A stretch of DNA of 33,435 nt from a candidate division WOR-3 bacterium (GTDB lineage: Bacteria; Hydrothermota; UBA3073), in assembly GCA_034722095.1 (NCBI GenBank), contig JAYENM010000339.1, positions 1 to 33,435 on the forward strand, given 5' to 3'. Under the pieces are notes generated by a model. It saw only the letters and a list, made by a program, of their open reading frames with translations. It was not told the origin of the DNA and did no database searches. This document shows positions 11,194-33,435 of this stretch, piece by piece. Each line of letters starts with the position of its first letter. Position 1 is the stretch's first letter. Position numbers and translations under genes: made by a program.

Positions 11194-11199
11194 GGTGCT

Positions 11200-16793: not shown

Positions 16794-16842
16794 ACAATTC
16801 AGTTACAGAGCATATCAGAAGACCAGTGTATCGGTTCGACTG

Positions 16843-16864: not shown

Positions 16865-16907
16865 GTCAGTGGGCAGAATGTCAGAACAGACTGGTAGTCG
16901 GTAATCG

Positions 16908-17186: not shown

Positions 17187-17211
17187 AATTCGCTAATGCA
17201 CTTATCCTACC

Positions 17212-17382: not shown

Positions 17383-17395
17383 CGGGAGGTTGCTC

Positions 17396-18494: not shown

Positions 18495-18884
18495 CTATTC
18501 TTCTTTTGGCTTTCTTCTCATCACCTTTTCCATATCTACCAGTTCCAACATACAGATATTGGCACCGTCTCCTTTTCTCTGGCCAAGACTGAGAATCCTT
18601 GTGTATCCGCCGTTCCTATTCTTATATACAGGGGCTATCTCATCCCACACTTTTTTAACAGTTTTTTTATCTCCTGTGAGAGAGTAGGCAAGTCTCCTGG
18701 AGTGGAGATCACCCTTCTTGGAGAGGGTGACGATCTTTTCGGCAAGAAGTCTCACCCTCTTCGCCTTTTCATTAGTCGTCTTTATAGAATGATGGGTAAA
18801 GAGAGATATCACAAGACTTTTTAGCATTGCATCCCGTTTTTGCTTTTCTCTTCCCAATTTTGCGATTTTGGAACGGTGTCTCAT
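18495..18884 (-). CDS. rplQ: 50S ribosomal protein L17
   Basis: 129-aa ORF starting MRHRSKIAKLGR. Overlaps the rpoA stop (ATGA). Canonical position after rpoA. Confidence 0.95.
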   Translation of the reverse strand: MRHRSKIAKLGREKQKRDAMLKSLVISLFTHHSIKTTNEKAKRVRLLAEKIVTLSKKGDLHSRRLAYSLTGDKKTVKKVWDEIAPVYKNRNGGYTRILSLGQRKGDGANICMLELVDMEKVMRRKPKEE

Positions 18885-19843
18885 TTTCCCTCCAGTTTTG
18901 AGGGTTCCATACCGAACGAGAGACCGTAACTCTTCAGTATGGTTGATAGTTCCTGCAATGATTTCTTACCGAAGTTGGGAAATTTGAGCATTTCCTGCTC
19001 TGTCATCTGAACAAGGTCTCGCAGGGTCTCAATACCCGCTGTTTTCAAACAGTTGGCAGCCCTCACTGATAGTTCCAGTTCCGATATCTTTATATTGAGT
19101 GTCTTTTTGAGTCTCTTTTTGTCTTCAGGCTCTTCTCTTTCCCTCTCGATAGTAATTTCGCGGAGTTTCAAAAATGGCTCGATATGGTCTCGTAAAAGAG
19201 CAGCTGCTATTGTTTCTGCATCCTCTGGTTTAATTCTTCCATCTGTCCAAATCTCAAGAATAAGCTTCTCGCGGTTCTTTACGCCGACACTCTCAACCTT
19301 AAAATTTACTCTCTCAATGGGTGAGTAGAGCGCATCTATAAATATTGTTCCGATAGGTGCACGGTTATAACCTGGAAGTTCCTCTCTAGGTACATATCCT
19401 CTTCCTGTAGTCACGCCGAGTATTACATTCAGGTTAACATCATCCTTCATCACTGTTGCTATAAGATGTTCAGGATTTATTATCTCAAAAGTCCCGTCAG
19501 ATTCTATATTTTTTGCATAAACAGGTCCCTTTCCCTTGATAGATAGTTCTATCTCCTTTTCGAACTTGTCAAACAATTTTATCTTTATGCCCTTGAGATT
19601 GAGTAGAATATGGGGAAGATCTTCCAGAACACCATCTATGGTCGAAAACTCATGTAAGACGCCATCTATTCTTACGAATGAGATCGTAGAACCTTGCATA
19701 GAAGAGAGCAATGTTCTCCTGAAAGCATTTCCCAGTGTAGTGCCAAAAGATCTCTCAATGGGAGATAACACAAACCTTGCGTATTTGTCATCAGCCTCGA
19801 CTGTTTTTATCTTATCAGGTATTTGAAATGGTCTCAATTTCAT
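18881..19843 (-). CDS. rpoA: DNA-directed RNA polymerase alpha subunit
   Basis: 320-aa ORF. Alpha NTD plus CTD helix-hairpin-helix (ELELSVRAANCLK). GGGGG SD 5 nt upstream. Confidence 0.97.
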   Translation of the reverse strand: MKLRPFQIPDKIKTVEADDKYARFVLSPIERSFGTTLGNAFRRTLLSSMQGSTISFVRIDGVLHEFSTIDGVLEDLPHILLNLKGIKIKLFDKFEKEIELSIKGKGPVYAKNIESDGTFEIINPEHLIATVMKDDVNLNVILGVTTGRGYVPREELPGYNRAPIGTIFIDALYSPIERVNFKVESVGVKNREKLILEIWTDGRIKPEDAETIAAALLRDHIEPFLKLREITIEREREEPEDKKRLKKTLNIKISELELSVRAANCLKTAGIETLRDLVQMTEQEMLKFPNFGKKSLQELSTILKSYGLSFGMEPSKLEGK

Positions 19844-19949
19844 TCCTACCCCCTATAGATGTAAATATTGTGTATAGTATTAACCACAGAGGACAAAAAT
19901 TTAAAAATTAAATATCAAAATGACAAACCAAAAATCCAAAAGGGCCACG

Positions 19950-19968
19950 CCTGCCTGCCGCAGGCAGG
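19950..19968. repeat. CCTGCC..GGCAGG core hairpin at the centre of the rpoA-rpsD spacer
   Basis: cctgcctgc c gcaggcagg. The spacer also has 11-bp perfect outer arms at 19881-19891 and 20047-20057 (aaccacagagg/cctctgtggtt). Confidence 0.75.
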
Positions 19969-20079
19969 GATTTCACTGATAAAAAATATTTCAATCTGTG
20001 AAAATCTGTGTAATCTGTGGTTATGATTTTTGATTTATCTCTGCGACCTCTGTGGTTTTTTCATATGGTTTTTACAAAG

Positions 20080-20700
20080 CTACTTAGAATAAAGTTCAAC
20101 GATAAGTCTCTCCTCTATTTCCTCTGGGACATCATCTCTCCTGGGGAGACTTACAATCTCAATATTTAAAGATTCTTTGTCAAATGTGATCCACTTTGGA
20201 GGTGCAACCTTCATAAGTAAAGCATCTTCTATATTTGGAGGTACTTTGGTCTTTCTCAGAGTTATTACATCAGTCACTTTTACCGCATAAGATGGTATAT
20301 CTACCCTTCTATTGTTCACCATAAAATGGCCATGTGTGACAAGTTGTCTTGCTTCCATTCGTGATCTTGCAAGTCCTGTTCGGTATATAACATTATCAAG
20401 ACGGAGTTCTAATTCCTTGAGAAGTTCCTCTCCTGTTACTCCCTTCTTCCGTGTAGCTTTTTCAAAATAATTTCTGAATTGGTGCTCTGTCAACCTATAC
20501 ATCCTCTTTACTCTCTGTTTCTCTCTCAGATGTCTTCCGTAATCGGTCTCTTTACGCATAAAACCCTTGCCGAGTTCTCCGGGTCGCTTACGGTTTTTCT
20601 CTATAGAGCACTTTGCTGATGAACATCTCTTGCCTTTTAGAAATAACTTCTTACCATCCCTTCTGCATAGTCTACAAACTGGTCCGTGGTATACAGCCAT
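20080..20700 (-). CDS. rpsD: 30S ribosomal protein S4
   Basis: The track ORF extends to 20736. The ATG at 20700 (MAVYHGPVCRLCRR...) sits behind GGAGGA and directly after the rpsK stop. Cys-rich N-terminus plus S4 domain. Confidence 0.93.
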   Translation of the reverse strand: MAVYHGPVCRLCRRDGKKLFLKGKRCSSAKCSIEKNRKRPGELGKGFMRKETDYGRHLREKQRVKRMYRLTEHQFRNYFEKATRKKGVTGEELLKELELRLDNVIYRTGLARSRMEARQLVTHGHFMVNNRRVDIPSYAVKVTDVITLRKTKVPPNIEDALLMKVAPPKWITFDKESLNIEIVSLPRRDDVPEEIEERLIVELYSK

Positions 20701-20701
20701 A

Positions 20702-21073
20702 CTATATCCTCCTCTTCTTTGGTGGCCTACAACCATTGTGAGGAATAGGCGTTACATCTCTTATATATGCTATAACAAGCCCTGCCGCTTTGATAGCCCT
20801 TACAGCAGAATCCCTACCTGCGCCAGGACCCTTAACCCATACCTCTACATTTCTCATTCCAATGTCTGCAAGTTCTTTTGCAATTTTTTTTGCACAGATA
20901 CCTGCTGCAAATGGAGTTCCTTTCTTGGACCCTTTGAAACCAATACTCCCAGCACTTGCCCATAAAAGACAGGCCCCTTTCTCATCTGTTATTGTAACAA
21001 TCGTATTATTAAATGTAGACAATATATGAACTATACCTTTTTCAGGTGCTTTTCGCAGTCTCTTCTTCTTCAT
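20702..21073 (-). CDS. rpsK: 30S ribosomal protein S11
   Basis: 123-aa ORF with [18 protein letters not shown] and a C-terminal ...[12 protein letters not shown] motif. Confidence 0.96.
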
Positions 21074-21225
21074 TTAACCCCCCCACCGTAATTTCAAAAT
21101 CCAAATACCCAATTTCCAACAAAATTCCAAAACCCCAATGCTAACTTAAGCACACCTCATTTTTCTGATATTTGACATTTGATATTTTATTGGAAATTTG
21201 CAATTGGAAATTAGACATTTATTTT

Positions 21226-21612
21226 TTATTTCTTTGCTTTTGCCTTCTTTTTAAGTGCGATCTGTGCCTTCCGTGGACCCTTTCTCGTTCTGGCATTTGT
21301 CCGAGTTCGTTGACCCCTTACAGGAAGTCCTTTTTTATGTCTGACACCCCTTGCGCAATTTATGTTAATAAGCCTTTTTATGTTCTCCTGGACCTCCCGC
21401 CTCAATGCTCCTTCTATTTTATAATCAGATTCTATTACGTTCCTGAGTGCCTCGACCTCCTCATCAGTTAGGTCCTTTATCCTTCTGTCAGGAGATACCT
21501 TACTCTTTTGCAGTATATTATGTGATGTAGAAATGCCAATACCGTATATATACGTAAGGGCTATCTCAATCCGTTTATTTGGTGGAAGTTCAACTCCCGA
21601 AATCCTCGCCAT
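21226..21612 (-). CDS. rpsM: 30S ribosomal protein S13
   Basis: 128-aa ORF starting [10 protein letters not shown] with a basic C-terminal tail. Confidence 0.96.
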
Positions 21613-21636
21613 CCATCCCCCTTAGTAAAATTAAAT

Positions 21637-21762
21637 ATCAAAAATCAAAAATCAAAAATCGTGAACCGTAAGTCGTGATCCGGAATCCGTGGTCCATTAC
21701 CCATAATCTAAAATCAAATATCAAAATTTTAAAATTTACATTTTGATTTTTACATTTAGGTT
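21637..21762 (+). repeat. phase-locked degenerate heptamer array, 18 units without indels
   Basis: atcaaaa x3|atcgtga|accgtaa|gtcgtga|tccggaa|tccgtgg|tccatta|cccataa|tctaaaa|tcaaata|tcaaaat|tttaaaa|tttacat|tttgatt|tttacat|ttaggtt. The first and last units are mutually complementary. Confidence 0.8.
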
Positions 21763-21777
21763 GCTGAAAGCAACCGC

Positions 21778-21891
21778 TCATCCCTGTCTCTGCTTATGCT
21801 TAGGGTTTTTACACACAACCCTCAAAACACCTTTTCTCTTCACAATCTGACACTTTGCACAAATTTTCTTTATAGACGCTCTTACCTTCAT
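21778..21891 (-). CDS. rpmJ: 50S ribosomal protein L36 (Zn-binding form)
   Basis: Not in the ORF track (under 60 aa). Hand translation of the minus strand gives [37 protein letters not shown] plus a stop. CxxC...C...H pattern. Canonical position between infA and rpsM. Confidence 0.92.
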
Positions 21892-21938
21892 AAATACTCC
21901 CGTTACCCCATAATATGCATTAGCCACAGAAAAACATA

Positions 21939-21959
21939 GTTTGTTAGACTCTAACAAAC
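21939..21959. repeat. perfect 9-bp hairpin between infA and rpmJ
   Basis: gtttgttag act ctaacaaac. Confidence 0.8.
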
Positions 21960-22007
21960 CAACAAACTAACCAACTCTCAGCTCTTGTGATAATCTTACC
22001 TGCGTTT

Positions 22008-22226
22008 CTACTTAAATCTGTGTAGTATTCTTCCTCTGGAGAGGTCATAAGGCGAAAGTTCCACTACAACCCTATCCCCGGGTAGGATTTTTATGAAGTG
22101 TACCCTCATCTTACCAGACACATGAGCAAGCACCTTATGTCCAGTATCAAGGACTACCCTGAACATTCCTCCCTTAAGTGCCTCTTCAACTACACCTTCA
22201 ACCCTTATACCCTTTTTTTCAGCCAT
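22008..22226 (-). CDS. infA: translation initiation factor IF-1
   Basis: 72-aa ORF. S1-like fold sequence ...[22 protein letters not shown]...[12 protein letters not shown]. Confidence 0.96.
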
Positions 22227-22888
22227 AAACCGGCAAAACCAGAATTGAGTCCTAATTCCTTTCTACCCGTACCTTTTATTCCTTTCACTGCCTGCATTAT
22301 TCTATCATGCACCTCTTCTATACTACCACTTCCGTCTATCTTGATAAGTTTTTCTCTTTTTCTGTAGTAATTTATCAACGGAGAGGTCTCATTTTCATAG
22401 ACATCTATTCTCTTTTTTATCGTTTCTTCCGCATCATCTACCCTTGAGGTGAGTTTACTCCCGCATATATCGCAGATATCAGGTGTTTTCGGTGGATTCG
22501 ATGATAAATTATATACCGTTTTACAATTCGGGCATACCTTCCTTTTACTGATTCTCTGTATAATATCAGGACTCTCCAGATAAAGGTAGAATACATAGTC
22601 AGGTTTAATTTTCTCAAGCAAAATTGCCTGTGGAATATTCCTTGGAAACCCCTCCAGAACAAAAGATTGCGGGAGATTCGCCAGCAACATATCTATGATG
22701 ACCTTATCTGGAACAAGTTCCCCATTTTTTACATATCTTTTTGCCTTACCTCCAAGTTCTGTCTTCATTGCAATCTCGTCACGAATTATATCTCCTGCCG
22801 AGATAAACGGTATTCCCAGTTTCTCTGCCACCATCCTCGCCTGAGTGCCCTTACCCGAGCCAGGGGGACCTATAAATAGGACTTTCAT
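22205..22888 (-). CDS. adk: adenylate kinase (Zn-lid type)
   Basis: 227-aa ORF. P-loop [10 protein letters not shown] and a lid with CPNC...CDIC. A C-terminal tail of about 20 aa overlaps the infA start by 22 nt. Confidence 0.94.
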
Positions 22889-24201
22889 TACCCTCTTCTG
22901 CCCCTTATTTTTCCCTTTCTTAGGAATCCATCGTAGTGTCTCATCGTAAGTTGCGCCTCTATTTGTCTCATTGTATCGAGTGCAACACCAACAACGATGA
23001 GAACAGATGTGCCACCGAAGACGAACGGGGCGTTAAGCTTATGTAGAATTATAGCAGGCACTATCGCTACAAGAGCAAAAAACAGTGCCCCAGGAAAGGT
23101 TATTCTGGATATTATCCTGTCTATGTAGTCGGCTGTGCTCTTGCCCGGCCTCACGCCCGGTATAAATCCTCCATATTTTTTCATGTTATCCGCGATATCA
23201 ATTGGGTTCAAGACAACAGCCGTGTAGAAATAGGCGAAAAATACTATCAGACTTGCATAGACTATATTATACAGCCAGTTCATAGGGGAGAAGAAGACCA
23301 TAAGGTTTTGTATCCAGTCGCTACCTGAAAAAAATCTTGCTATTGTGGCAGGAAAGGTAAGGACTGCCTGGGCAAATATTATTGGTATTATGCCAGCAGC
23401 ATTTACATTCAATGGAAGATGGGTAGACCTTCCTCCATATATCTTCCTTCCGATAACCCTTTGTGCATACTGAACGGGAACCCTTCGCTGCCCCTGGGTT
23501 ATTATGACGACAGCTGCAATTATTCCAATGATTACTATAACCGTAACAACGGCCGCAATGGGGCTCATAGCACCAATGCGTACCATATTGAATGTTGTTA
23601 TAAAATCTCTCGGAAACCTCGCTATTATACCAATCATTATTATCAATGATATACCATTTCCTATGCCTCTGTCTGTGATAAGTTCTCCAAGCCACATTAT
23701 AAATAGTGTACCCGTGATCAGTGTGATGATGGAAAGAAGTCTGAAAGACAACCCGGGATTTATAACCACAGGCTCTCCTGAAGGTGCCTGTGCAGATTCA
23801 AGAAATATACATACACCGAGTGCCTGTATAGCGGCTATTCCTATAGTGAGATATCGTGTATGCTGATTTATTTTTCTTCTACCCTCTTCTCCCTCTTTCT
23901 GTAATTTCTGGTAATACGGCATTGCCGCTCCCAGAAGTTGTAGTATGATAGAGGCGGATATATATGGCATTATTCCCAATCCAAATATTGCACCCGACGA
24001 GAGACCGCCTCCCACAAATATATCATACAGTCCAAGTGCAGTTGCTCTGGCACTCTCAAAGAAGCTGGCAAGGGCAGAGGTATTGATACCTGGAAGGGGT
24101 ATATGCCCTCCCAACCTGTATACCGCAAACATTGCGAGCGTAAACAGAATTTTGTTGCGCAGGTCAGGTATCTTGAATGCATTTCGTAGAGTTCCCAACA
24201 T
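22888..24201 (-). CDS. secY: preprotein translocase subunit SecY
   Basis: 437-aa multi-pass membrane ORF in the canonical position between rplO and adk. The stop overlaps the adk start (TAATG). Confidence 0.96.
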   Translation of the reverse strand: MLGTLRNAFKIPDLRNKILFTLAMFAVYRLGGHIPLPGINTSALASFFESARATALGLYDIFVGGGLSSGAIFGLGIMPYISASIILQLLGAAMPYYQKLQKEGEEGRRKINQHTRYLTIGIAAIQALGVCIFLESAQAPSGEPVVINPGLSFRLLSIITLITGTLFIMWLGELITDRGIGNGISLIIMIGIIARFPRDFITTFNMVRIGAMSPIAAVVTVIVIIGIIAAVVIITQGQRRVPVQYAQRVIGRKIYGGRSTHLPLNVNAAGIIPIIFAQAVLTFPATIARFFSGSDWIQNLMVFFSPMNWLYNIVYASLIVFFAYFYTAVVLNPIDIADNMKKYGGFIPGVRPGKSTADYIDRIISRITFPGALFFALVAIVPAIILHKLNAPFVFGGTSVLIVVGVALDTMRQIEAQLTMRHYDGFLRKGKIRGRRG

Positions 24202-24231
24202 AATACAATAATCAGTTATTGAGTCATTAGG

Positions 24232-24675
24232 TTATTGAATAGCCCTTTTCGATATTCTCCCTCCCCTTGCCTCGATCTTCTCTCTAGCAGATGCAGAAAC
24301 TTTTATCCCTTCTATAGTAAGTTTTTTTGTAAGTTCACCATCCCCGAGTATCTTCACAGGTTTTTTTTTCTTTATAAGACCTGAAGTACGAAGCAGTTTT
24401 TCATTTACCACAGTTCCGTCTTCGAATTTATTCAGTTGCTTTACATTTACCACTTCGTACACTATCGCTGAAGGATTGCGGAATCCTCTCTTTGGCAGCC
24501 TTCTGTAGAGTGGAGTTTGACCACCTTCAAACCACGGAGAGATCTTTTTACCCGCTCTTGCTTTCTCTCCCTTATGCCCTCTACCAGATGTTCCACCTAC
24601 CCCTGAGGATGCTCCTCTGCCTCGTCTCTTTTTTTCCTTTGTATTTATTTTTTTTAAGTTGTGTAACTCCGCCAT
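24232..24675 (-). CDS. rplO: 50S ribosomal protein L15
   Basis: The track ORF extends to 24699. The ATG at 24675 (MAELHNLKK...) has a GAAGGA SD. Contains GRGASSGVGGTSGRGHKG. Confidence 0.93.
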   Translation of the reverse strand: MAELHNLKKINTKEKKRRGRGASSGVGGTSGRGHKGEKARAGKKISPWFEGGQTPLYRRLPKRGFRNPSAIVYEVVNVKQLNKFEDGTVVNEKLLRTSGLIKKKKPVKILGDGELTKKLTIEGIKVSASAREKIEARGGRISKRAIQ

Positions 24676-24728
24676 ATATAATCCTTCTAAAAATCTCAAG
24701 TATCAAATTACAAACAAGCACCAAGCAC

Positions 24729-24748
24729 CCTGCCTCCCGTCAGGCAGG
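24729..24748. repeat. CCTGCC..GGCAGG core hairpin in the rplO-rpmD spacer
   Basis: cctgcct cccgtc aggcagg, nearly identical to 57-76. Confidence 0.75.
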
Positions 24749-24851
24749 CAAATTACAAATAACAAATCTCAAGATCCGTATGGACAATATTTAAATCTCA
24801 ATAACCTAAATTCTAAGCTCTAATTTGGTTTGAACTTAAAAAATAAGTTAC

Positions 24852-25040
24852 TTAATGTGATACTACTTCTTCAACCCTTACAAGATGCCTTACCTTTCTT
24901 ATCATTCCCCGTATCTGGGGCGTATCGTTATGGATCCTCTCATCATGTGGATGATGAAGCCCGAGCGCGAGCAGGGTGCGCTTCTGATCGGACTTTACTC
25001 CTATTTTACTCTTTATCTGTATTACCTTTATCTTATTCAT
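24852..25040 (-). CDS. rpmD: 50S ribosomal protein L30
   Basis: 62-aa ORF starting [11 protein letters not shown], with ...[10 protein letters not shown]. Confidence 0.93.
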
Positions 25041-25075
25041 ATCCGGATATTCAAGATGAGCAGGAGGAAAGTTCT

Positions 25076-25549
25076 TTATAATTGTACTCCTCTTATTTTC
25101 TCAATCTCTTCTTTGGTTTGCATGGAGAGAAGTCCATAAAGTGTTGCCTTCACAAGATTCTTTGTGGTATTGCTGCCCAGAGACTTTGTAAGAATATTTC
25201 TCACCCCGGCAAGCTCTAACACAGCCCTTACGGGTTCACAGGCAATAATGCCTGTTCCAGGGGCAGCGGGTTTCATCAGAAGCTTTGCTCCTCCACACTT
25301 GGAAACAATAGAATGCGGTATAGTCCCGTTTATTACCTTGACACTTTTCATACTTCTTTGTGCCTTTTCTGCTCCTTTTCTAACCGCTGCTGAGACTTCA
25401 TGTGCTTTACCAAAGGCGACTCCTACACGAGATACACCGTCTCCTACAACCACAACGACGGAAAATCTAAAACGTTTTCCTCCTTTTACCACTTTTGATA
25501 CACGATTTACCTCAACTACCCTTTCCTCAAGTTCTTTTTCTTCCTCCAC
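25076..25549 (-). CDS. rpsE: 30S ribosomal protein S5
   Basis: The track ORF starts at TTG 25573. GTG at 25549 is preferred because GGGGG lies 4 nt upstream, the spacing seen at other genes here. Contains [16 protein letters not shown]. Confidence 0.9.
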
Positions 25550-25776
25550 AATACCCCCGGTAAACAAAATCAAAAATCAAATTTCAAAAATCAAAATTAT
25601 AGCCACAGATTAAAGCGACTTCAAAAATTCTAAATAACAATTACTAAATCTGCAGAGTCCTGCGGACAATATCTAAATCCCAATTTTTCAAATTCCAAAC
25701 CAACTGTTCTTGTTTGGAACATTTGAATTTATAACTTAGAATTTGTTTAGAATTTCGGATTTAGAATTTAGGATTT

Positions 25777-26115
25777 CTAAAATCTCAATCCTCCCTCTTT
25801 TGCACCCTCCGCAAGGGCTTTGATTATGCCGTGATACTTATAACCGGAACGATCAAAAACAACACTTTCTATTTTCTGTTTTTTTGCCTTTTTTGCAAGT
25901 CTCTTTCCGCATTCCTTTGCTGCTTCCAGCTTGCTCAGATTAGTACCTTTTAATTGAAGTGTGGAAGAACTCACGAGGGTATTTGATGCAATATCATCAA
26001 TCAACTGCGCATACACATACCTGAGACTTCTATAAACACAAAGTCTCGGTTTTTCCCTCATACCGAATACCTTCTTGCGTATTTTCCTATGTCTTTTTTC
26101 TCTTCCTCTCTCCAT
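25777..26115 (-). CDS. rplR: 50S ribosomal protein L18
   Basis: The track ORF extends to 26157. The ATG at 26115 (MERGREKRHRKIRKK...) gives the typical L18 N-terminus. C-terminal YHGIIKALAEGAKEGGL. Confidence 0.92.
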   Translation of the reverse strand: MERGREKRHRKIRKKVFGMREKPRLCVYRSLRYVYAQLIDDIASNTLVSSSTLQLKGTNLSKLEAAKECGKRLAKKAKKQKIESVVFDRSGYKYHGIIKALAEGAKEGGLRF

Positions 26116-26209
26116 AAGCCCTTTATAAGTAATGAGTAACAAATAACAACAATCCACCCAACTAACAAACTAACCAACTAACAAACTAACTCTTCACACG
26201 CCTTACGCT

Positions 26210-26758: not shown

Positions 26759-26864
26759 AATATCTTAATAAAATACAAAGTACAAAATTATTTCTCCAAA
26801 ATTTGATTTCCTATGCGCCACTCCACCGCGCATTCCGCATTTCACATTGGACATAACTTATGGC

Positions 26865-27245
26865 TTACCATAGATAAAAAAGGACTTCTCCTCCAACGCC
26901 TTCTTTCTTTGCCATCCTGTCGGAAAGTACGCCCTTTGACGTGGAGAGAATGGCAGTGCCAAGTCCCTCCCTCACCCGTGGCATATTTTTCAGGTTGGCA
27001 TAAATTCTACGACTCGGTTTGCTAATCCTTTTAAGTCCTTTTATAGCATCCTTCTTGAGGTGTAAAGCAAGTATCTTTTTGGGATGTTTGCCCTTTGTCT
27101 CAAATTTCTCCAGGTAACCCTCTTTCAGAAGAATACTGGCGATGTCCTCTAGAATATTGGAAGAGGGCAATTCCAGATAAAACACCTCTCTCCTTAAGGA
27201 GTTGCGTATCCTTGCTATCATATCACCTATAATATCATTAGTCAT
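26865..27245 (-). CDS. rpsH: 30S ribosomal protein S8
   Basis: 126-aa ORF starting MTNDIIGDMIARIRN and ending ...GGEVLFYLW. Confidence 0.96.
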   Translation of the reverse strand: MTNDIIGDMIARIRNSLRREVFYLELPSSNILEDIASILLKEGYLEKFETKGKHPKKILALHLKKDAIKGLKRISKPSRRIYANLKNMPRVREGLGTAILSTSKGVLSDRMAKKEGVGGEVLFYLW

Positions 27246-27251
27246 AATATT

Positions 27252-27437
27252 TCACCAACTTGCCTTTCTAACACCGGGTATTTCACCCCTCAGTGCTAAC
27301 TCCCTGAAACAAATTCTGCACAGACCAAATTTGGTATAGTATCCCCTTGCCCTGCCACATCTCATGCATCGGTTGTATTTTCTCACCTTGTATTTTGGTT
27401 CTCTTTTAGCCTTTACTTTCCAAGATGTCTTCGCCAT
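27252..27437 (-). CDS. rpsN: 30S ribosomal protein S14, type Z (Zn-binding, 61 aa)
   Basis: 61-aa ORF with [20 protein letters not shown] (CxxC...CxxC). Confidence 0.95.
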
Positions 27438-27531
27438 AACCCCCCTTGCAGTTGAGTAATTAGGTTATAAGGTAATTAGGTAATTAACTGTTTAGTCCCT
27501 TAAATGACCCAATGACGCAATGACTCAATAT

Positions 27532-28071
27532 TTATCTCTTAAATGGCATTCCAAGGCTTTTAAATAGTTCAAATGCCTCTTCGTCACTTCTTGCCGTGGT
27601 AACGAAGTTTACATCCATCCCAAAGGTAAACTTTACCTTATCGAATTTTATTTCCGGAAATATTGTATGTTCTGTGATGCCCAAGTTATAATTTCCTTTG
27701 CCGTCAAAGGAGTCTGGATCTATACCACGGAAATCTCTTATCCTCGGGATTGCAAAGTTAGTAAGCCTATCAAAAAAGTCAAACATCCTCTCACCCCGTA
27801 GGGTAGCCTTCAATCCGATAGGTTTTCCCTTGCGAAGTTTAAATGAGGCAACGGACTTTCCTGCTTTTATTACGACTGGTTTCTGTCCTGTGATTATCGC
27901 AAGGTCGGAAGAGACAATGTCTATAAGTTTAGGATCCCCTATTGCCTCTCCCAGGCCCACATTAACTACTATTTTTTTGAGCATTGGAACCTCGTATAGA
28001 TTTTTATACCCGAACCTCTTTATCATAGCAGGCACTACTGTCTTATAATATAGCTCTTTAATTCTTGACAT
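27532..28071 (-). CDS. rplE: 50S ribosomal protein L5
   Basis: 179-aa ORF starting MSRIKELYYKTVVPAMIKRFGYKN. Confidence 0.96.
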   Translation of the reverse strand: MSRIKELYYKTVVPAMIKRFGYKNLYEVPMLKKIVVNVGLGEAIGDPKLIDIVSSDLAIITGQKPVVIKAGKSVASFKLRKGKPIGLKATLRGERMFDFFDRLTNFAIPRIRDFRGIDPDSFDGKGNYNLGITEHTIFPEIKFDKVKFTFGMDVNFVTTARSDEEAFELFKSLGMPFKR

Positions 28072-28105
28072 AGTTTACTTATTAGATTCAATCAAAAAGC
28101 CATGT

Positions 28106-28414
28106 CTAATCTATCATCTCCTTGCACTTTTTACATTTCCGTGCCCTCATATCTCCAACTCTGCTTATTGAAATCTTCACCGTATTTCTACACTTCGGAC
28201 ATACAAGCATGACATTTGAGGCACTGATGGGCCCTTCCCTGTGCAATATACCTCCCGGTTCCTCCGCTGAACGCGCCCGCATGTGTTTCTTCTGAAAATT
28301 AATCCCTTCAACTATGAGCATCCCTTTTCTTGGGAATACCCTCAACACCTTCCCCGTCTTGCCTTTGTATTCTCCTAAGGTTACTTTTACCGTATCATTC
28401 TTTTTTATCTTCAT
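28106..28414 (-). CDS. rplX: 50S ribosomal protein L24 with C-terminal CxxC-x18-CxxC segment
   Basis: 102-aa ORF with a KOW motif (KKNDTVKVTLGEYKGKTGKV). The C-terminus is CPKCRNTVKISISRVGDMRARKCKKC. Confidence 0.95.
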   Translation of the reverse strand: MKIKKNDTVKVTLGEYKGKTGKVLRVFPRKGMLIVEGINFQKKHMRARSAEEPGGILHREGPISASNVMLVCPKCRNTVKISISRVGDMRARKCKKCKEMID

Positions 28415-28416
28415 AT

Positions 28417-28785
28417 CTATATCACCTCGGGTGCCATAGAGATTATCTTCATAAAGTTCTTATCTCGTAATTCTCTCGAGACCGGTCCAAACACCCTTGT
28501 TCCTATTGGCTCAAGTTGATTATTTATAAGCACACAAGCATTGTCATCAAACCTCACATAACTCCCGTCATTTCTTCTCATCTCCTTTCTCGTGCGAACA
28601 ATAACTGCCTTCTGAATAGTTCCGCTCTTTATCTGACTCCTAGGAACCGTTTCCTTTATTGCGACCACAATGACATCACCTGACCTTGCATATCTCTTTC
28701 TGGAGTATCCAGGCATCCCAATACACATACCGACTTTTGCCCCTGAATTATCTACTATTCCCAATCTTGTTCGTAGTGTGATCAT
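28417..28785 (-). CDS. rplN: 50S ribosomal protein L14
   Basis: 122-aa ORF starting [17 protein letters not shown]. Confidence 0.96.
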
Positions 28786-29015
28786 TTCTTTACCTCGACT
28801 ATCCTGAAGTGTTTCTTTTTTGACAAGGGTCTTGTTTCTTCTATTACAACAGTATCCCCAAGCTTGGTCTTGTTATTCTCATCGTGGCACATTACCTTCA
28901 TATATTTTCTGACGACCTTGCCCAACAATGGATGTTTCCTTTTAATCTCTACCTTAACAAGACAACTTCTGTCCATCTTATCAGATATAACTTCACCTGA
29001 AAACCTTCTTTTCAT
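28782..29015 (-). CDS. rpsQ: 30S ribosomal protein S17
   Basis: 77-aa ORF with ...[27 protein letters not shown]. Overlaps the rplN start. Confidence 0.95.
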
Positions 29016-29052
29016 ACGCTATCTCCCTGCCAACTAAAAAGGTATTGAAATC

Positions 29053-29256
29053 TCACTTTTTATCTCCCGTAATTTCCTTTTCTCTCAGTATTGTCTTTAT
29101 TCGTGCTATCTCTCTCTTTATCTTTTTGATATCCGAGGGCTTTGGGGTTTCAGCTTGTTTCTTAAACCTTATACTCATGAACTCTTCATGCAGGTCATGT
29201 AGCTTTTGCTTTAGCTCGTCAGCAGAAAACTCCCGCAGTTCAAAGGGCTTCACCAA
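29053..29256 (-). CDS. rpmC: 50S ribosomal protein L29
   Basis: 67-aa ORF with ...[21 protein letters not shown]. Confidence 0.93.
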
Positions 29257-29668
29257 GGCCTCCTTTTCTTATTATAATTTTGGTTTTCACAGGCAGTTTT
29301 GAGGCTCCAAGTCTTAAGGCCTCCATTGCCTCTTCCTTGGGTATACCACCAAGTTCAAATAGTATTCTACCCGGTTTTACAACGGCAACCCAGAACTCCG
29401 GCGAGCCTTTACCCTTACCCATTCTTGTCTCTGCTGGCTTTTTGGTAACAGGCTTGTCAGGAAATATTCTTATCCACAACTTTCCTGACCTCTTTAGGTA
29501 TCTGGATATTGCAACTCTGGCTGCCTCTATCTGACGCTGGGTAATCCACGCAGGTTCAAGTGTCTTTAAGGCATAGTTCCCAAAAACAAGCGAATTTCCT
29601 CGTGTTGCAATACCCTTTCTTCTGCCCCTGTGTTGCTTTCTGTATTTTACTCTTGATGGTTGTAACAT
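29240..29668 (-). CDS. rplP: 50S ribosomal protein L16
   Basis: 142-aa ORF starting [16 protein letters not shown]. Confidence 0.96.
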
Positions 29669-29754
29669 ACCTTCACATTAAAATGTAAAATTAGCAAATC
29701 AAATTTTTAATTGATAATTTTACATTGCTAATTTTGCAATGAATCAGCGGACTT

Positions 29755-30384
29755 TTATATTTCTACATTGCCCTTGTATATCCAGACTTTTACCCCGACA
29801 ACGCCAGAGATAGTTTTTGAAGGTATATAAGAATAATCAAGATCTGCCCTGAGTGTTTGAAGTGGCACCCTGCCCTCTCTATACCATTCGTTCCTGGCAA
29901 TCTCTGCCCCGCCGAGTCTCCCCTTGCACATTACCTTTATACCCAATGCACCCATACGTATAGCCTGCTGTACAGCCCGTTTCATAGCCCTCCTATGGGA
30001 CACTCTCTCCTCTATTTGTCTTGCTATGTTCTGAGCAACAATTCTGGCATCTGTCTCAGGCACTTTTACCTCTTCTATATTTATATAAACATCCTTGCTC
30101 TTGGTTAAAAATGCAAGTTCATTTTTGAGCCTTTCGACCTCTACTCCTTTCCTGCCTATTATAATTCCAGGTCTTGCACTATATATTGTAATTGTGAGTT
30201 TTGCCTCAGTTCGTTCTATCTCTACATCTGATATTGCTGCACGTACGAATCTCTTCTCAATATATTTTCTGATGGTGGCATCTTCTGTAATATACTCCTT
30301 GAATTTATTCTTTGTTATCCATCGAGACTTCCAGTTTTTGGTTATACCCAATCTAAAACCATACGGATGTGTCTTTTGTCCCAC
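29755..30384 (-). CDS. rpsC: 30S ribosomal protein S3
   Basis: 209-aa ORF starting [14 protein letters not shown], with a KH domain. Confidence 0.96.
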
Positions 30385-30424
30385 TAATCCTCCTTATTAT
30401 TAAATCATGTATTATCAAACCCAA

Positions 30425-30444
30425 CCTGCCTGACGGCAGTCAGG
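30425..30444. repeat. CCTGCC..CAGG core hairpin next to element copy B
   Basis: cctgcctgacggcagtcagg (one mismatch in the stem). Confidence 0.65.
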
Positions 30445-30473
30445 GAGACACTGAAATCACACATTGGTTACAG

Positions 30474-30751
30474 GTAATCACTAATCGGTAAATTCCAAGG
30501 CATATCAGGATATCAGTGGATCAATCCATACGGATCCGTAGGGATAGGCAGAGTATCAGGTTATCAGAAGATCAGGCAGCCTGATGCTCTGATATACTGA
30601 TACCCCCCGACTGATATTCTGATCTCCCGATATACTCGTCATGTTATGCTTCCTACTGATATTCTGATCGTCGGATACGCTTGTTTTTCCTGACCACTGA
30701 TGACCGATCACTGATTACCCGATCTGCTGGTTTCCTTCCTACTGATACTCT
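30474..30751 (+). repeat. copy B of the ~280-bp structured non-coding element (between rpsC and rplV)
   Basis: Same orientation as copy A. Identical runs correspond to 17001-17038 and 17042-17113 of copy A. Palindrome TACGGATCCGTA at 30529-30540. Confidence 0.9.
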
Positions 30752-30762
30752 TTTTCTCACGA

Positions 30763-31116
30763 TCACCGATTACTGCTAACCTCATCGGTAACCACACACT
30801 TAAGATGGCTGAATCTCCTGTGTATTATATCTCTTCTTCCCCTTGCTCTCGGATTGAGTCTTTTTAATCTAAAACTCTGTTCTACAATAACAGATTTAAT
30901 TATAGCATCTTTCTCGCTTATATCCTCCTCTTTTTTTACTTTTAAATTTGCATAAGCAGATTTAATAGCCTTTGCAACCAGATTTGTATGTGTAGAAGGA
31001 AGCTGTTGCATTGCAGCAAGCGCCTCTTCCACACTCATGCCACGGAGTGGAGACACAAGCCTCACAAGTTTTTTGGAGGAAATTCTCAGGTATTTCTGAT
31101 AGGCAAAGCTTTCCAT
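30763..31116 (-). CDS. rplV: 50S ribosomal protein L22
   Basis: 117-aa ORF with ...YLRISSKKLVRLVSPLRGMSVEEA. The last codons are made of spacer-repeat words (see findings). Confidence 0.94.
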   Translation of the reverse strand: MESFAYQKYLRISSKKLVRLVSPLRGMSVEEALAAMQQLPSTHTNLVAKAIKSAYANLKVKKEEDISEKDAIIKSVIVEQSFRLKRLNPRARGRRDIIHRRFSHLKCVVTDEVSSNR

Positions 31117-31391
31117 TATGGCTTCCTCCTTGTCTCTTTGGCCTTCTTTCCACCATGCTGTCTAAAAACCTTACTGGGTGCAAATTCTGCTAATTTATGC
31201 CCCACCATATTCTCCGTTATATATACAGGGATAAACCTGTTTCCATTGTGAATCTGAATTGTATGCCCAACAAACTCAGGTGTAATTATAGACCTTCTTG
31301 CCCATGTCTTTATCGGTTTCTTGTCACCGCTTTTTATCTTCTTTAACAATTTTTCATCTATGTAAGGTCCTTTTTTAAGTGATCTTGCCAT
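31116..31391 (-). CDS. rpsS: 30S ribosomal protein S19
   Basis: 91-aa ORF starting [15 protein letters not shown], with ...GHKLAEFAP. Confidence 0.96.
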
Positions 31392-31412
31392 TACCCCCCC
31401 TAAACTTTGTTA

Positions 31413-32231
31413 TCACTTTCTTCTTTGTAAGATAAACTTATTTGATGGTTTTTTCTTTTTTCTTGTCTTTTTACCCTTTGCTGGAACACCGGTGGGCGAC
31501 CTTGGGATATGCCCTTTGCTCCTACCTTCTCCTCCGCCCATCGGATGGTCAACGGGGTTCATCGCAGAACCTCTTACCTTGGGTCTTCTACCCAGATGTC
31601 TTACTCTACCTGCCTTGCCGATGATAACGGCGCGGTTGTCAGGATTGGATACCTGACCAAGCGTAGCATAACAGTCAAGATGCACAAGTCTTACTTCTCC
31701 GGATGAAAGCTTTAAATGCGCATAAGCTCCTTCTTTTGCAAGGATTTTGGCTGATGTACCTGCTGCCCTTACGAGTTTGCCTCCTCTTCCTGGTTCAAGT
31801 TCTATATTGTGGATATCCATACCCGGTGGAATATGTTTCAACGGAAGTGCATTTCCGACTTTTACTGGCGCCTCCGGGCCTGATATGACCCTGTCCCCAA
31901 CAGACAGTCCAACAGGACAGAGGATATATCTCTTCTCGCCGTCTATATAGGAAAGCCTTGCTATTCTTGCGCCTCTATTTGGGTCATACTCAATATGTGT
32001 TACCTTTGCTTCTATTCCGTGTTTATTCCTTTTGAAATCAATAATACGTAGAAATCTCTTTGCTCCGCCTCCTCTGTGTCTCACGGTTATCCTGCCCTTT
32101 GTATCCCTGCCCGCCTTCGACTTTAGTGGACGAACAAGAGATTTCAAAGGTCTCTCTTTTGAGAGGACGGAGAAGTCCTCAAATGTCGTATGTCTCCTTG
32201 AAGGAGTTATCGGTCTTACTTTCTTTACCAT
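31413..32231 (-). CDS. rplB: 50S ribosomal protein L2
   Basis: The track ORF extends to 32273. The ATG at 32231 gives the canonical [15 protein letters not shown]-terminus. C-terminal ...[12 protein letters not shown]. Confidence 0.94.
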
Positions 32232-32259
32232 AATCTTAAAAAGCTCGGGAAATAGTGAA

Positions 32260-32553
32260 TTACATGCCCTCAAATACAGCTATTGTGTCACCCTCTTTAA
32301 GTTTTACAATTGCTTTCTTCTTTTTTGCCTTTCTGCCTGTCCAACGACCAAGTCTTTTTGGCTTACCTATGAGATTGAATGTTCTCACCTTTAGAGGTCT
32401 CACCTTAAAGAGCTCCTCAATTGCTTTGCCTATCTCAATTTTGTTCGCATCAGGATGGACCCAGAAGGTGTAACTGTTGGTCTTTGCCTTGAGTTTCAAT
32501 GCCTTCTCTGTGAGAAGGGGTGATATTATTATATTTCTTGCGTCCTTATCCAA
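32260..32553 (-). CDS. rplW: 50S ribosomal protein L23
   Basis: 97-aa ORF with ...ISPLLTEKA...[17 protein letters not shown]. Confidence 0.94.
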
Positions 32554-33172
32554 GTCTCTCCTCCAGTGAAAGAAGCCCTTTTAAGGAAAATATTATTGTG
32601 TCCGCTGAGAGAACTGCCAATGCGTTCAGGTCACTTGCAGTGATAAAGCTTACCCCGGGAATATTTCTACCAGATTTATACACATTGGTATTGGTCTTTT
32701 CCAGAGTAAAGAGTAACTTTGTACTCTCCTTAACACCAAAAGTTTTCAGCATATCATAAAATATCTTTGTCTTTGGATGCTCTATTGTAATCTCATCTAT
32801 GATGAGGATCTTGCCATTCTTTGCCATAAGTGAAAGAGAAGAGAGGAGTGCAAGTCTCTTCTTCTTTTTAGGCATGTCTATATTGTAGTCTCTCGGTTTT
32901 GGGCCAAAGGTTACACCGCCACCTCTCCATATAGGGGACCTTGTTGAACCCGCTCTTGCCATTCCTGTATGTTTCTGACGCCAGGGCTTTCTGCCTCCTC
33001 CTCTTACTTCCCCTCGTTTCTTGGCCGATGCAGTTCCCTCTCTTGCGTTTGCCATATATGCCCTTATAACTTCAGAGATGAGGGTCTTGTTTATCTCTTG
33101 CTCAAATACAGAAGGGGAAAGCTTTCTCTTTCCTACGATACTGCCATCTTTTGAATACACATTTATTCTCAT
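32546..33172 (-). CDS. rplD: 50S ribosomal protein L4
   Basis: The track ORF extends to 33229 across a perfect hairpin. The ATG at 33172 (MRINVYSKDG...) gives a typical L4 N-terminus. Contains GGGRKPWRQKHTGMARAGS. Confidence 0.92.
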   Translation of the reverse strand: MRINVYSKDGSIVGKRKLSPSVFEQEINKTLISEVIRAYMANAREGTASAKKRGEVRGGGRKPWRQKHTGMARAGSTRSPIWRGGGVTFGPKPRDYNIDMPKKKKRLALLSSLSLMAKNGKILIIDEITIEHPKTKIFYDMLKTFGVKESTKLLFTLEKTNTNVYKSGRNIPGVSFITASDLNALAVLSADTIIFSLKGLLSLEERLG

Positions 33173-33190
33173 AATAAAATTAGGTATAAA

Positions 33191-33219
33191 GCCACAGAAA
33201 AACAGGGTGTTTCTGTGGC
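33191..33219. repeat. perfect 10-bp hairpin between rplC and rplD
   Basis: gccacagaaa aacagggtg tttctgtggc. Confidence 0.8.
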
Positions 33220-33235
33220 TGATATTCAAGCAAGT

Positions 33236-33435
33236 TTAACCTTTTATGACAAGAAAACCACCTTTTATTCCCGGGACAGTTCCCTTAAGATATATAAGAT
33301 TCTGATCCTCATCTATTTTTACGATGGAGAGGTTCTTCAATGTAACCTTATCTGCTCCAGTCTTCCCTGCCATTTTTTTGCCCTTCCAGACCCTTCCAGG
33401 GTCAGCACTGGAACCTATAGACCCCTGGACACGAT
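33236..33435 (-). CDS. rplC: 50S ribosomal protein L3 (C-terminal fragment; gene continues beyond the window)
   Basis: Hand translation of the minus strand from 33433 gives RVQGSIGSSADPGRVWKGKKMAGKTGADKVTLKNLSIVKIDEDQNLIYLKGTVPGIKGGFLVIKG plus a stop at 33236-33238. Confidence 0.9.
   Translation of the reverse strand, partial: RVQGSIGSSADPGRVWKGKKMAGKTGADKVTLKNLSIVKIDEDQNLIYLKGTVPGIKGGFLVIKG

Follow-up and report, generated by a model that had tools for sequence, protein, structure and literature searches.

The stretch of DNA analysed here (33,435 nt, hereafter the window) belongs to the genome of an uncultured Candidatus Stahlbacteria (WOR-3) bacterium. Its minus strand carries the genes of the S10-spc-alpha ribosomal-protein super-operon in canonical order, from position 33435 down to 18495, and its plus-strand half carries gap, pgk, sucCD and other genes. 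Only 1 nt separates the rplQ stop (18495) from the start of the gene for the alpha subunit of a 2-oxoacid:ferredoxin oxidoreductase (OFOR; 18493), so that the super-operon appears to be continuous into central-metabolism genes. Many cistrons of this string are separated by long, repeat-filled spacers, which are the subject of this work. Most of them are probably inserted members of a family of selfish foldback elements of small size, gene-less relatives of the intervening sequence (IVS) of 23S rRNA genes.

Long spacers in the window and its relatives

Spacer lengths were measured with start codons set at conserved N-termini. Long spacers were found at twelve ribosomal junctions, all on the minus strand: rplV-rpsC (378 nt; 30385-30762), rpsD-rpoA (236 nt; 19844-20079), rplR-rpsE (~227 nt; 25550-25776), rpmD-rplO (176 nt; 24676-24851), rpmJ-rpsM (165 nt; 21613-21777), rpsM-rpsK (152 nt; 21074-21225), infA-rpmJ (116 nt; 21892-22007), rpsH-rplF (106 nt; 26759-26864), rplF-rplR (94 nt; 26116-26209), rplE-rpsN (94 nt; 27438-27531), rpsC-rplP (86 nt; 29669-29754) and rplC-rplD (63 nt; 33173-33235). 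Other long spacers lie between sucC and sucD (189 nt; 3941-4129, plus strand) and between the OFOR alpha and beta genes (602 nt; 16794-17395, minus strand). Five junctions are tight or overlapping, namely rplD/rplW (-8 nt), rpsS/rplV (-1), rpsQ/rplN (-4), rpoA/rplQ (-4) and secY/adk (-1). The gene order, all spacer lengths and all five tight junctions agree with a preliminary description of this DNA. The hairpins that it cited at 19950-19968 (CCTGCCTGCCGCAGGCAGG), 21939-21959 and 33191-33219 were also found, although the left one of two 11-bp arms that it reported lies 1 nt away from where it had been placed, at 19882-19892.

The relatives used for comparison are ordered by the identity of their SecY protein to that of the window: 100% in L001 (a Stahlbacteria metagenome-assembled genome, MAG), 98% in a second such MAG, L002, 90% in L003, 88% in L004 and L005, 87% in L006, 81% in L007 and 63-66% in L008, L010 and L016. 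The operon of the window contains 2024 nt of positive spacer, with 11 junctions of at least 50 nt. Totals of 1853 nt and 1734 nt were obtained for L004 and L007, ~250 nt of the L004 figure being the coding tail of the L15 gene. In the compact WOR-3 genomes L010, L016 and L008 the totals are 235, 204 and 258 nt, with 0-1 junctions of at least 50 nt. The comparison with relatives that the preliminary description had proposed thus finds the long spacers absent from compact WOR-3 genomes (~0.2 vs ~2.0 kb), and the arrangement of L016, L010 and L008 is, judging from these sequences, the ancestral state. The spacers are not assembly artefacts, because they are spanned by the independent assemblies L001 and L002 and by Logan contigs of four metagenomes. 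Expansion of the overlapping junctions was seen in no genome compared. The Zixibacteria-like loci L009, L011-L015 and L020 also have many ribosomal-operon spacers of 50-280 nt and few tandem arrays (0-18 nt per kb).

Repeat content of the spacers

The spacers are mosaics of tandem words, GC palindromes of 18-20 nt, composites that resemble MITEs (transposable elements of the miniature inverted-repeat type) and a ~290-nt ATCAG/CTGAT foldback. The tandem words have a period of 7-9 nt (AAAATCA, AATTAGGT, TAGTTKGT, AAATYCT, ATCAGNN, CACAGAK, TTTCCAA and AATGACCC), and an array of one word usually precedes one of the reverse-complementary word, which gives the foldback architecture. Each word recurs at 3-6 spacers and in both orientations, as do heptamers of the short tandemly repeated repetitive (STRR) type. 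Tandem Repeats Finder detected 35 arrays of period 6-10, which occupy 16.6% of the non-coding vs 0.49% of the coding DNA. The arrays amount to 25-47 nt per kb in the window, L001-L003, L005 and L007, 14 in L004 and 7 in L006, vs a median of 7 in 72 other loci. A GC palindrome of the form CCTGCCT..CG..AGGCAGG is present in four copies in the window, together with the TACGGATCCGTA family. The GC palindromes at 57-76, 19950-19968, 24729-24748 and 30425-30445 were found in spacers only and show raised word depth; they are short, imperfect, extragenic and of high copy number, as are repetitive extragenic palindromic (REP) sequences.

The longest ribosomal spacer, rplV-rpsC, consists mainly of the ~290-nt ATCAG/CTGAT foldback (30466-30756), which would form a long imperfect hairpin; a palindrome CCCTACGGATCCGTATGGA lies at 30525-30543 and a GC hairpin at 30425-30445. 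A second copy of this foldback, 90-93% identical, occupies 16900-17191 of the OFOR alpha-beta spacer. The latter also contains three copies (0-1 mismatch) of GGTTGCGATAAACC between 17212 and 17383, 50 and 108 nt apart and confined to this spacer (0.14 matches expected by chance), which may represent binding sites or a degenerate mini-array. At the rplV-rpsC junction L004 has a shorter homologue of the foldback and L007 a gene for a four-helix-bundle protein, described below.

Two spacers are solo foldbacks of the AAATYCT word: sucC-sucD, with arms at 3960-4008 and 4028-4103, and rplR-rpsE, with arms at ~25614-25711 and 25722-25789, followed in rplR-rpsE by a (TTTTGAT)n array that adjoins the rpsE Shine-Dalgarno sequence. 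The rpsD-rpoA spacer is a foldback with arms of CACAGAG words, including the 11-bp perfect arms AACCACAGAGG (19882-19892) and CCTCTGTGGTT (20047-20057), and its interior contains CACAGAT and AAATCA/TGATTT words and the 19-nt GC palindrome at 19950-19968. Its arm motif is repeated at 204-223 and 1395-1414 of the window and occurs in many phyla. In rpsM-rpsK a TTTCCAA/TTGGAAA word foldback was found, and rplC-rplD contains a hairpin of CACAGA-type words with a 10-bp stem (GCCACAGAAA ... TTTCTGTGGC; 33191-33219). The rplE-rpsN spacer is largely an inserted word foldback (~77-85 nt; 27447-27531) composed of TTGAGTCATTGCGTCATTGGGTCATT ... AATTACCTAATTACC ... ACTCAA. Word arrays and the GC palindrome CCTGCCTGACGGGAGGCAGG (24729-24748) make up rpmD-rplO, where an 18-nt insertion CCATACGGATCTTGAGAT at 24766-24783 is absent from L001 and L002. 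The remaining spacers are simpler: infA-rpmJ has a TAGTTKGT array, the 9-bp hairpin at 21939-21959 and half a CACAGA arm; rplF-rplR has a one-directional GTTAGTTKGTTAG array at 26145-26190; rpsH-rplF has GAATGYG words and an AT-rich tract, and rpsC-rplP an AT-rich palindrome.

The preliminary description had extended its observation to the sucC-sucD and OFOR alpha-beta spacers, and word foldbacks are indeed present in both. The plus-strand lpl-comM spacer (293 nt; 7625-7917) is likewise filled with repeats (10.5 copies of AATTAGGT, words of the type GACGCAAN, GC hairpins and AATGACCTAATAAC in an inverted array), which shows that such repeats extend through the whole window and are not peculiar to the ribosomal-protein operon. 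Upstream of gap, positions 1-280 (plus strand) are part of a ~430-nt composite element with a GC hairpin (57-76), a CACAGAG foldback (~150-225) and a TTGACAATACC end. Its segment 46-167 is 88.5% identical to positions 163-283 of a 431-nt insertion in the rpmD-rplO spacer of L002.

The arrays also give rise to spurious open reading frames (ORFs). One of 51 codons in rplV-rpsC (30556-30711) was rejected as a gene and is a by-product of the repeats; it and another at 21638-21781 encode repeated peptides (SDDQNISR, LIFDF).

Turnover between strains and relatives

The spacer sequences are multi-copy. Logan contigs end at the spacers, where word depth is 3-9 times that of the flanks; in the brine metagenome X4, which contains 99% of the words sampled from the window, depth within rplV-rpsC is 114 vs ~13, and at position 30524 a depth of 560 vs 12 was recorded.

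Spacers change quickly, and at orthologous junctions their identity is mostly below that of third codon positions. The rplE-rpsN junction measures 94 nt in the window, 17 nt in L002 and L003 and 16 nt in L004 and L005, and the 87 nt of L007 are an independent insertion of other words. The rpmD-rplO junction measures 176 nt in the window and 158, 589, 3, 170, 423, -4 and 65 nt in L001-L007, respectively. Where the junction is present, rplR-rpsE measures 227 nt in the window, 320 in L002, 240 in L003, 21 in L004 and L005 and 84 in L007, and the window and L002 differ wholly in content save for the 3' ~65 nt. Unrelated sequence occupies rpsC-rplP in L003 (264 nt), L004 (196 nt) and L007 (54 nt). 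The rplF-rplR junction is 15 nt long in L003. The rpsM-rpsK foldback is 76-79% conserved in L003 and L006, is absent from L004 and L005 (16 nt) and is replaced by other words in L007.

Differences between strains that are 98-99% identical are of three kinds. Changes by word units were seen in Logan strains (-14, +12, +8 and -7 nt), including a 14-nt deletion of two units from rpsM-rpsK in strains X6 and X7, and in infA-rpmJ (+12 and +16 nt of words); L002 has 14 and 16 additional nt of words in rplF-rplR and rpsH-rplF, respectively. Discrete palindromes come and go, as in the 18-nt insertion at 24766-24783 and the exact loss of the 19-nt hairpin 19950-19968 from X6. Whole blocks are inserted or replaced: 431 nt inserted in the rpmD-rplO spacer of L002, 135 nt of rplV-rpsC replaced by 37 nt in X6, and a +77-nt block in Logan strains. 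Terminal inverted repeats were recognised in the 11-bp arms of rpsD-rpoA and, by eye, in the imperfect ends of ~16 nt (GGTRKTGTCAAAWAA) that bound the 431-nt block.

Folding of the spacers and search for terminators and promoters

Folding energy was expressed as the z-score of each spacer against dinucleotide shuffles; 40 coding controls gave -0.19 +/- 1.0. Six of the 12 ribosomal spacers folded better than their shuffles: rplC-rplD (-5.0), rplV-rpsC (-4.3 / -3.7), rpsD-rpoA (-3.9), rpsM-rpsK (-3.5), rpmD-rplO (-2.6) and rpsC-rplP (-2.1). The lpl-comM spacer (-5.0) and the OFOR alpha-beta spacer (-5.3) gave similar values. The earlier statement that the spacers are structured therefore holds for half of the ribosomal ones (z -2.1 to -5.0), but not for the other six. 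Antisense strands folded about as well as sense strands, which indicates that these are palindromes at the DNA level. A quasi-continuous helix of at least 20 bp was present in most long spacers (42 bp in sucC-sucD, 35 in rpsM-rpsK, 31 in rplR-rpsE, 28+25 in rplV-rpsC), so that, like an IVS, they have complementary termini that form a long enclosing stem.

As had been proposed, the spacers resemble neither terminators nor promoter units. Terminator-like sites numbered 11 vs 11.6 +/- 4.0 in shuffles, and promoter-like sites 40 vs 33.4 +/- 5.5, the latter being a weak test since the consensus may not be that of WOR-3. Most hairpins are not followed by a U-tract, but partial U-tails, which had been overlooked, occur in infA-rpmJ (UGUUUUUCUG) and rplC-rplD (UUUAU). 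A search of Rfam with the whole window, both strands, at E <= 1 returned no match, and hence no known ribosomal-protein leader.

Gene-carrying relatives of the spacer repeats

In the 562-nt rplV-rpsC spacer of L007 we found a 119-aa four-helix-bundle gene (TIGR02436, 75 bits; PF05635, '23S rRNA-intervening sequence protein'). It is flanked by inverted AAATCCT/AAATTCT arrays, the same words as in the sucC-sucD and rplR-rpsE spacers of the window. This protein alone was used to retrieve 80 metagenome loci, 48 of which extend for 250 nt or more on both sides of the gene. The best inverted-repeat score between the flanks of these 48 loci had a median of 17.8 and was at least 13 in 38 of them; direct repeats gave 9.0 and shuffles 8.6 +/- ~1. 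The arms consist of arrayed AAATCCT/AAACTCT/AAATCCG words, the repeat reaching into the first codons of the gene. Neighbouring genes have the same orientation as the four-helix-bundle gene upstream in 43/46 cases, downstream in 40/46 and on both sides in 36/44, and at least five loci have it between two dehydratase subunit genes, Aconitase and Aconitase_C. This co-orientation and placement indicate that the elements live inside operons.

Profiles built from the metagenome arms matched the window at 3960-4008, 4028-4103 and 25614-25789 in nhmmer searches (E 1e-7 to 2e-13), with E-values of 1e-7 to 9e-13 for sucC-sucD and of 3e-10 and 2e-13 for rplR-rpsE. For the AAATYCT family, the one to which such profiles were applied, the spacers of the window are therefore homologous in their arms to copies that carry an ORF. 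IVS proper are located in helix 25/45 of 23S rRNA, and the elements of the window lie between protein-coding genes.

The arm motif of rpsD-rpoA, CTCTGTGNNCTCTGTGGTT, was used to scan 185,579 species genomes. At least 120 stretches were retrieved, whereas chance alone would give ~70 matches over the entire collection. The stretches listed contain 146 matches, which are not lineage-specific; among the matches listed are Planctomycetota, Acidobacteriota, Nitrospirota, Omnitrophota, Proteobacteria, Cyanobacteria and archaea of Methanosarcinales type. A third word in register is present in 81 of the 146 matches listed, and 12 complete AACCACAGAG-NN-CACAGAG ... CTCTGTG-NN-CTCTGTGGTT hairpins of 62-518 nt are found among them. 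Also among the CACAGAG loci listed, 5 of 6 GxxExxY genes (TIGR04256 / PF13366, of the PD-(D/E)xK type) are no more than 135 nt away from the motif, and the CACAGAG arms enclose the gene in L313 (Omnitrophota) and L235 (Geobacteraceae). Relatives of GxxExxY were not found in viral contigs, so the link of these genes with CACAGAG rests on loci retrieved by the motif. The archaeal occurrences are in the MAGs L233, L269, L295, L296 and L298 (Ethanoperedens, Methanothrix, Methanosarcinales, Methanoperedenaceae); in L233, CACAGAG words upstream of CTCTGTGNNCTCTGTGGTT suggest that this word family has spread across domains.

Other four-helix-bundle genes have inverted flanking arrays of different words: a Bacteroidia MAG has AGAAAGT, Zixibacteria have GGGGCTT, and an Uhrbacteria MAG has GGTGATTAA and GAGTGAT, the GAGTGAT array being interrupted by the GC palindrome CCTGCCTGCCGGCAGGCAGG. 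In L011, L012, L020 and L043 the gene with its GGGGCTT/AAGCCCC flanking arrays is situated ~7-9 kb downstream of secY. Across phyla, 30 of the 127 CCTGCCTGCCGGCAGGCAGG matches listed have a word array no further than 80 nt away, vs 7.5% of random positions. The palindrome often splits a word array, and copies sometimes lie one inside the other. Such nesting, e.g. CCTGCCTACC[CTGCCTACCGGCAGGCAGG]CGGCAGGCAGG, was seen in L104, L111, L117, L151 and L157 and is what repeated insertion into a preferred palindromic target leaves behind.

The conserved rpmJ-rpsM spacer

The rpmJ-rpsM spacer is the sole conserved element. From 5' to 3' it comprises a hairpin GGTTGCTTTCAGCAACC, AAAATCA/TGATTTT words, a CACGGAT/CACGATT core and a U-rich (UUUUUGA)n array that adjoins the rpsM Shine-Dalgarno sequence. 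Its identity to the window is 96% in L003, 92% in L004 and 90% in L005, with 63%, 52% and 51% at third codon positions, and the identity peaks in the spacer and declines into both flanking genes. The core motif occurs once per contig in the four relatives that hold it; L006 and L007 have different content at this junction. A 47-aa ORF in the spacer (21638-21781) was rejected, as it has no ATG start in L004 and L005, where it also contains a 1-nt insertion. In E. coli the alpha-operon promoter or leader sits at this position. The conservation points to either strong constraint, the spacer then being likely an alpha-operon leader or promoter, or spreading by precise homing, as proposed for IVS; with five near-identical sequences (90-96%), covariation cannot separate the two.

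Other features of the window

Most Shine-Dalgarno sequences read GGGGG(G), not GGAGG (rpsM, rpsK, rpsN, rpsE, rpoA, rpsS, gap, pgk and sucD; for example at 21613-21625, 27438-27450 and 1436-1446). A G-rich Shine-Dalgarno sequence of their own is retained by 10/12 of the genes downstream of long spacers; rplD and rplF have none recognisable on inspection. No map gene is present between adk and infA in the window. The adk gene has an odd C-terminal tail and overlaps infA by 22 nt (region 22205-22290). In strains X6 and X7, 72 other letters replace 3 nt at 22270-22274 in this region, and in L003 and L004 adk and infA are separated by gaps of 39 and 24 nt, respectively, with no overlap.

Apparent rplO-secY spacers of 182-261 nt in L004-L006 were rejected, as they are actually the coding tail of L15. 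In these three genomes L15 has a Glu/Lys-rich C-terminal extension of 60-85 aa (~10740-11000 in L004) at the 3' end of rplO, which mimics a spacer when gaps are extrapolated from the protein of the window. In L001 a ~100-nt word array lies just before the last rplO codons (rplO-secY junction; 24232-24251 in the window), and X6 has 77 additional letters at 24250. These two cases indicate that repeats sometimes enter the coding 3' end and reshape the protein tail.

Two small genes were hidden in seemingly long spacers. The one between sucD and a transglutaminase-like gene (5130-5354) encodes a 74-aa protein with two CxxCxxC...CP motifs, a putative 2x[4Fe-4S] ferredoxin-like protein, and the other (9599-9829) a 76-aa DUF2007 protein (PF09413, E = 1e-6). 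For the sizeable ORFs at 11152-13155 (667 aa) and 14375-15271 (298 aa), Pfam gave no match at E <= 1e-3, and neither a tRNA nor a tmRNA gene was detected in the window by ARAGORN.

Origin of the spacers

We consider it probable that most of the long spacers are insertions of small selfish foldbacks that belong to a family of elements and are gene-less relatives of the 23S rRNA IVS. This reading builds on the repeat nature, copy number and turnover of the spacers, on the arm homology of two word families and on the association with small genes. In an element, a short centre would be flanked by inverted arrays of 7-9-nt words, one on either side; these arrays would often be interrupted by GC palindromes of 18-20 nt and built into larger MITE-like composites. 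Full-length relatives would carry, between the arms, a ~120-aa four-helix-bundle gene (PF05635/TIGR02436) or a GxxExxY PD-(D/E)xK nuclease-like gene, and would usually be inserted in sense orientation inside operons. The copies in the window would be solo foldbacks, at most gene-less derivatives of such elements. They would change by slippage of word units, by insertion and excision of mini-palindromes and by insertion, deletion or replacement of whole blocks. Since elements can persist only where genes do not overlap, they would pile up at non-overlapping junctions and leave the coupled overlaps untouched, and they would be tolerated because 10/12 of the downstream genes keep their own Shine-Dalgarno sequence. 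The spacers are presumably co-transcribed with the operon, each downstream gene being translated from its own Shine-Dalgarno sequence. In the metatranscriptomes X1-X3, which are linked to runs containing the window sequence, only short repeat fragments were matched. By analogy with the 23S rRNA IVS, the long imperfect duplexes may be cut by RNase III or may act as 3' stabilisers, at little net cost to the host.

Several results weigh against this reading. Homology was established for the AAATYCT and CACAGAG families only, TAGTTKGT, AATTAGGT, ATCAG and TTTCCAA being assigned by analogy, and the CACAGAG loci were retrieved by motif, so that only word-extended or paired copies count. The window and L001-L006 contain neither a four-helix-bundle nor a GxxExxY gene, and the link with gene-carrying elements is thus made through arm homology and one relative. 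The arm profiles score on both strands of the solo foldbacks and so give them no orientation relative to transcription. The small genes may be the elements' own or may be cargo that landed in pre-existing arrays. No recurrent transposase, RAYT (REP-associated tyrosine transposase) or mobility gene was found near the 120 CACAGAG loci listed. The insertions show no clear target-site duplication, and the possible ones of 4-5 nt (TTGT, GAGAT) could equally be microhomology. Six of the 12 ribosomal spacers fold no better than shuffles: rplF-rplR (+1.1), rplE-rpsN (+0.2), rpsH-rplF (+0.1), infA-rpmJ (-0.5), rpmJ-rpsM (-1.3) and rplR-rpsE (-1.5). RNase III processing and stabilisation of the mRNA are plausible by analogy alone.

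The preliminary description had regarded the spacers as intra-operonic RNA structures comparable to REP sequences and bacterial interspersed mosaic elements (BIME). The likeness to REP/BIME is apt in kind, half of the ribosomal spacers do fold, and they are not terminators; yet their turnover, antisense folding and cross-phylum families do not fit dedicated, selected RNAs. That the host has selected them to tune the stability, processing or translational decoupling of neighbouring cistrons is accordingly an unlikely explanation, though one with several results in its favour besides the six spacers with z of -2.1 or lower. The rpmJ-rpsM sequence has been conserved (90-96%) despite saturated synonymous sites, and rpsM-rpsK to 76-79%; U-rich (UUUUGAU)n arrays stand directly upstream of the Shine-Dalgarno sequences of rpsM, rpsE, ofrG and rpoA; and rpsD-rpoA is always 230-280 nt long in seven genomes, though its content differs. 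However, most junctions vary in presence, length and content among close relatives, with an identity below that of third positions, the antisense strands fold equally and six spacers fold no better than shuffles. The same modules lie between unrelated genes and in other phyla, compact relatives manage without the spacers, and Rfam gave no match.

It is very improbable that each long spacer has its own terminator and promoter, the super-operon being a string of independent units. Weak -35/-10-like hexamers do occur in AT-rich tracts (e.g. TTGAAG-17-TATAAT at 25624-25596), the end of the composite upstream of gap reads TTGACA ... TATAAT, and two hairpins have partial U-tails. But promoter- and terminator-like counts are at shuffle level (with the reservation on the promoter consensus made above), most hairpins lack a U-tract, and spacers are gained and lost between strains with gene order unchanged. 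Pure slippage of microsatellites under a lineage-specific mutational bias, with no mobility and no relation to IVS, accounts for strains that differ by precisely one or two word units (7, 8, 12 and 14 nt) and for unit counts that vary among L001, L002 and the window, but can be largely dismissed, as it leaves unexplained the identical composites at unlinked loci (the 290-nt element present twice, the L002 431-nt block matching window 46-259), the inverted-array architecture, the discrete palindrome indels of 18-19 nt and the same words and termini across phyla, flanking PF05635 / PF13366 genes.

Comparison with known systems

The IVS of the Coxiella 23S rRNA gene is a selfish element of 428 nt that has a terminal stem of 28 bp and contains an ORF for S23p (four-helix-bundle), just upstream of which lie two or three strain-variable tandem heptamers (GACAGAT); RNase III excises the IVS (PMC4990558). 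The foldback elements resemble the IVS of Coxiella and Leptospira in their complementary ends that form a long stem, in the PF05635/TIGR02436 gene of the full-length copies (L007 and the 80 metagenome loci), in the tandem heptamers directly upstream of the ORF, variable in number between strains, and in their sense orientation within a highly transcribed unit. They differ in lying between protein cistrons (ribosomal-protein, sucCD, OFOR and aconitase-type genes) and not in helix 45, in the lack of an ORF in the window and in having whole word arrays as arms; cutting by RNase III would hold here by analogy only.

Heptamers of the STRR type occur in heterocystous cyanobacteria, for instance between hupS and hupL, and a role in stability or translational coupling has been proposed for them (PMC2670836). 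Compared by description, they share with our spacers tandem words of ~7 bp, able to form hairpins, in intergenic and intra-operonic positions, whereas the phylum and the words are other ones, and the inverted arrays, the insertions of mini-palindromes and the link to small genes are features of the elements described here. With REP/BIME and with REPINs (REP doublets forming hairpins) with RAYT (PMC3116915) they have in common short, high-copy, extragenic palindromes, often intra-operonic and in mosaic clusters, that form hairpins in single-stranded DNA or mRNA and are proposed to be selfish. No RAYT/Y1 transposase was seen in the window or near the 120 CACAGAG loci listed, nor any other transposase-like ORF in the window; the units, unlike REPs, are tandem words instead of a single palindrome of 20-35 nt; and the words cross phyla, whereas REPs are lineage-specific.

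In Nostoc, the small dispersed repeats (SDR; Elhai et al. 2008) are reportedly palindromic units of ~20 nt inserted in tandem heptamer arrays and in each other, and their presence is said to vary. The likeness lies in ~20-nt palindromes in arrays, nested in themselves and present or absent between close genomes; in contrast to SDR, the CCTGCCT..CG..AGGCAGG family is found in many phyla. The name SDR is cited in PMC3116915. As in MITEs and foldback transposons, the elements are shorter than 600 bp, non-coding, with terminal inverted repeats and insertion polymorphism between strains; unlike in MITEs, no target-site duplication was established and no cognate transposase was found in the window or the CACAGAG loci listed. 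As in eukaryotic foldback elements, the arms consist of subterminal tandem repeats. In the searchable literature, whose coverage is incomplete, we found nothing relevant on repeats of Stahlbacteria/WOR-3, on the words or on GxxExxY or four-helix-bundle mobile elements, and no prior account for WOR-3 or of these gene families as operon-riding foldbacks.

Significance

Ribosomal-protein operons belong to the most compact and best-conserved gene strings of bacteria, and ~2 kb of fast-turning repeats in one of them show the insertion tolerance of a translationally independent operon. The results show concretely what the 'word-array' DNA between genes of an uncultured phylum is, and they tie word arrays to the 23S rRNA IVS and to two high-copy small protein families (four-helix-bundle/S23p and GxxExxY). 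They thereby make testable the role of the S23p-like protein, the movement of IVS and the nature of STRR, and they single out the 165-nt rpmJ-rpsM element as a candidate new cis-regulatory leader. In practical terms, the repeats fragment metagenome assemblies at operon spacers and can mislead gene callers into hypothetical proteins (as at 30556-30711 and 21638-21781). More tentatively, and with the doubt leaning against it, the window may be one colonised case of a cross-phylum class of operon-riding selfish elements: inverted word arrays able to carry a four-helix-bundle (Avd/S23p-like) or GxxExxY gene, targets of ~20-nt palindromic mini-insertions and moving without a transposase, of which the 23S rRNA IVS, STRR and SDR would be special cases. 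If true, such a class would explain the dozens of copies per genome of both small protein families.

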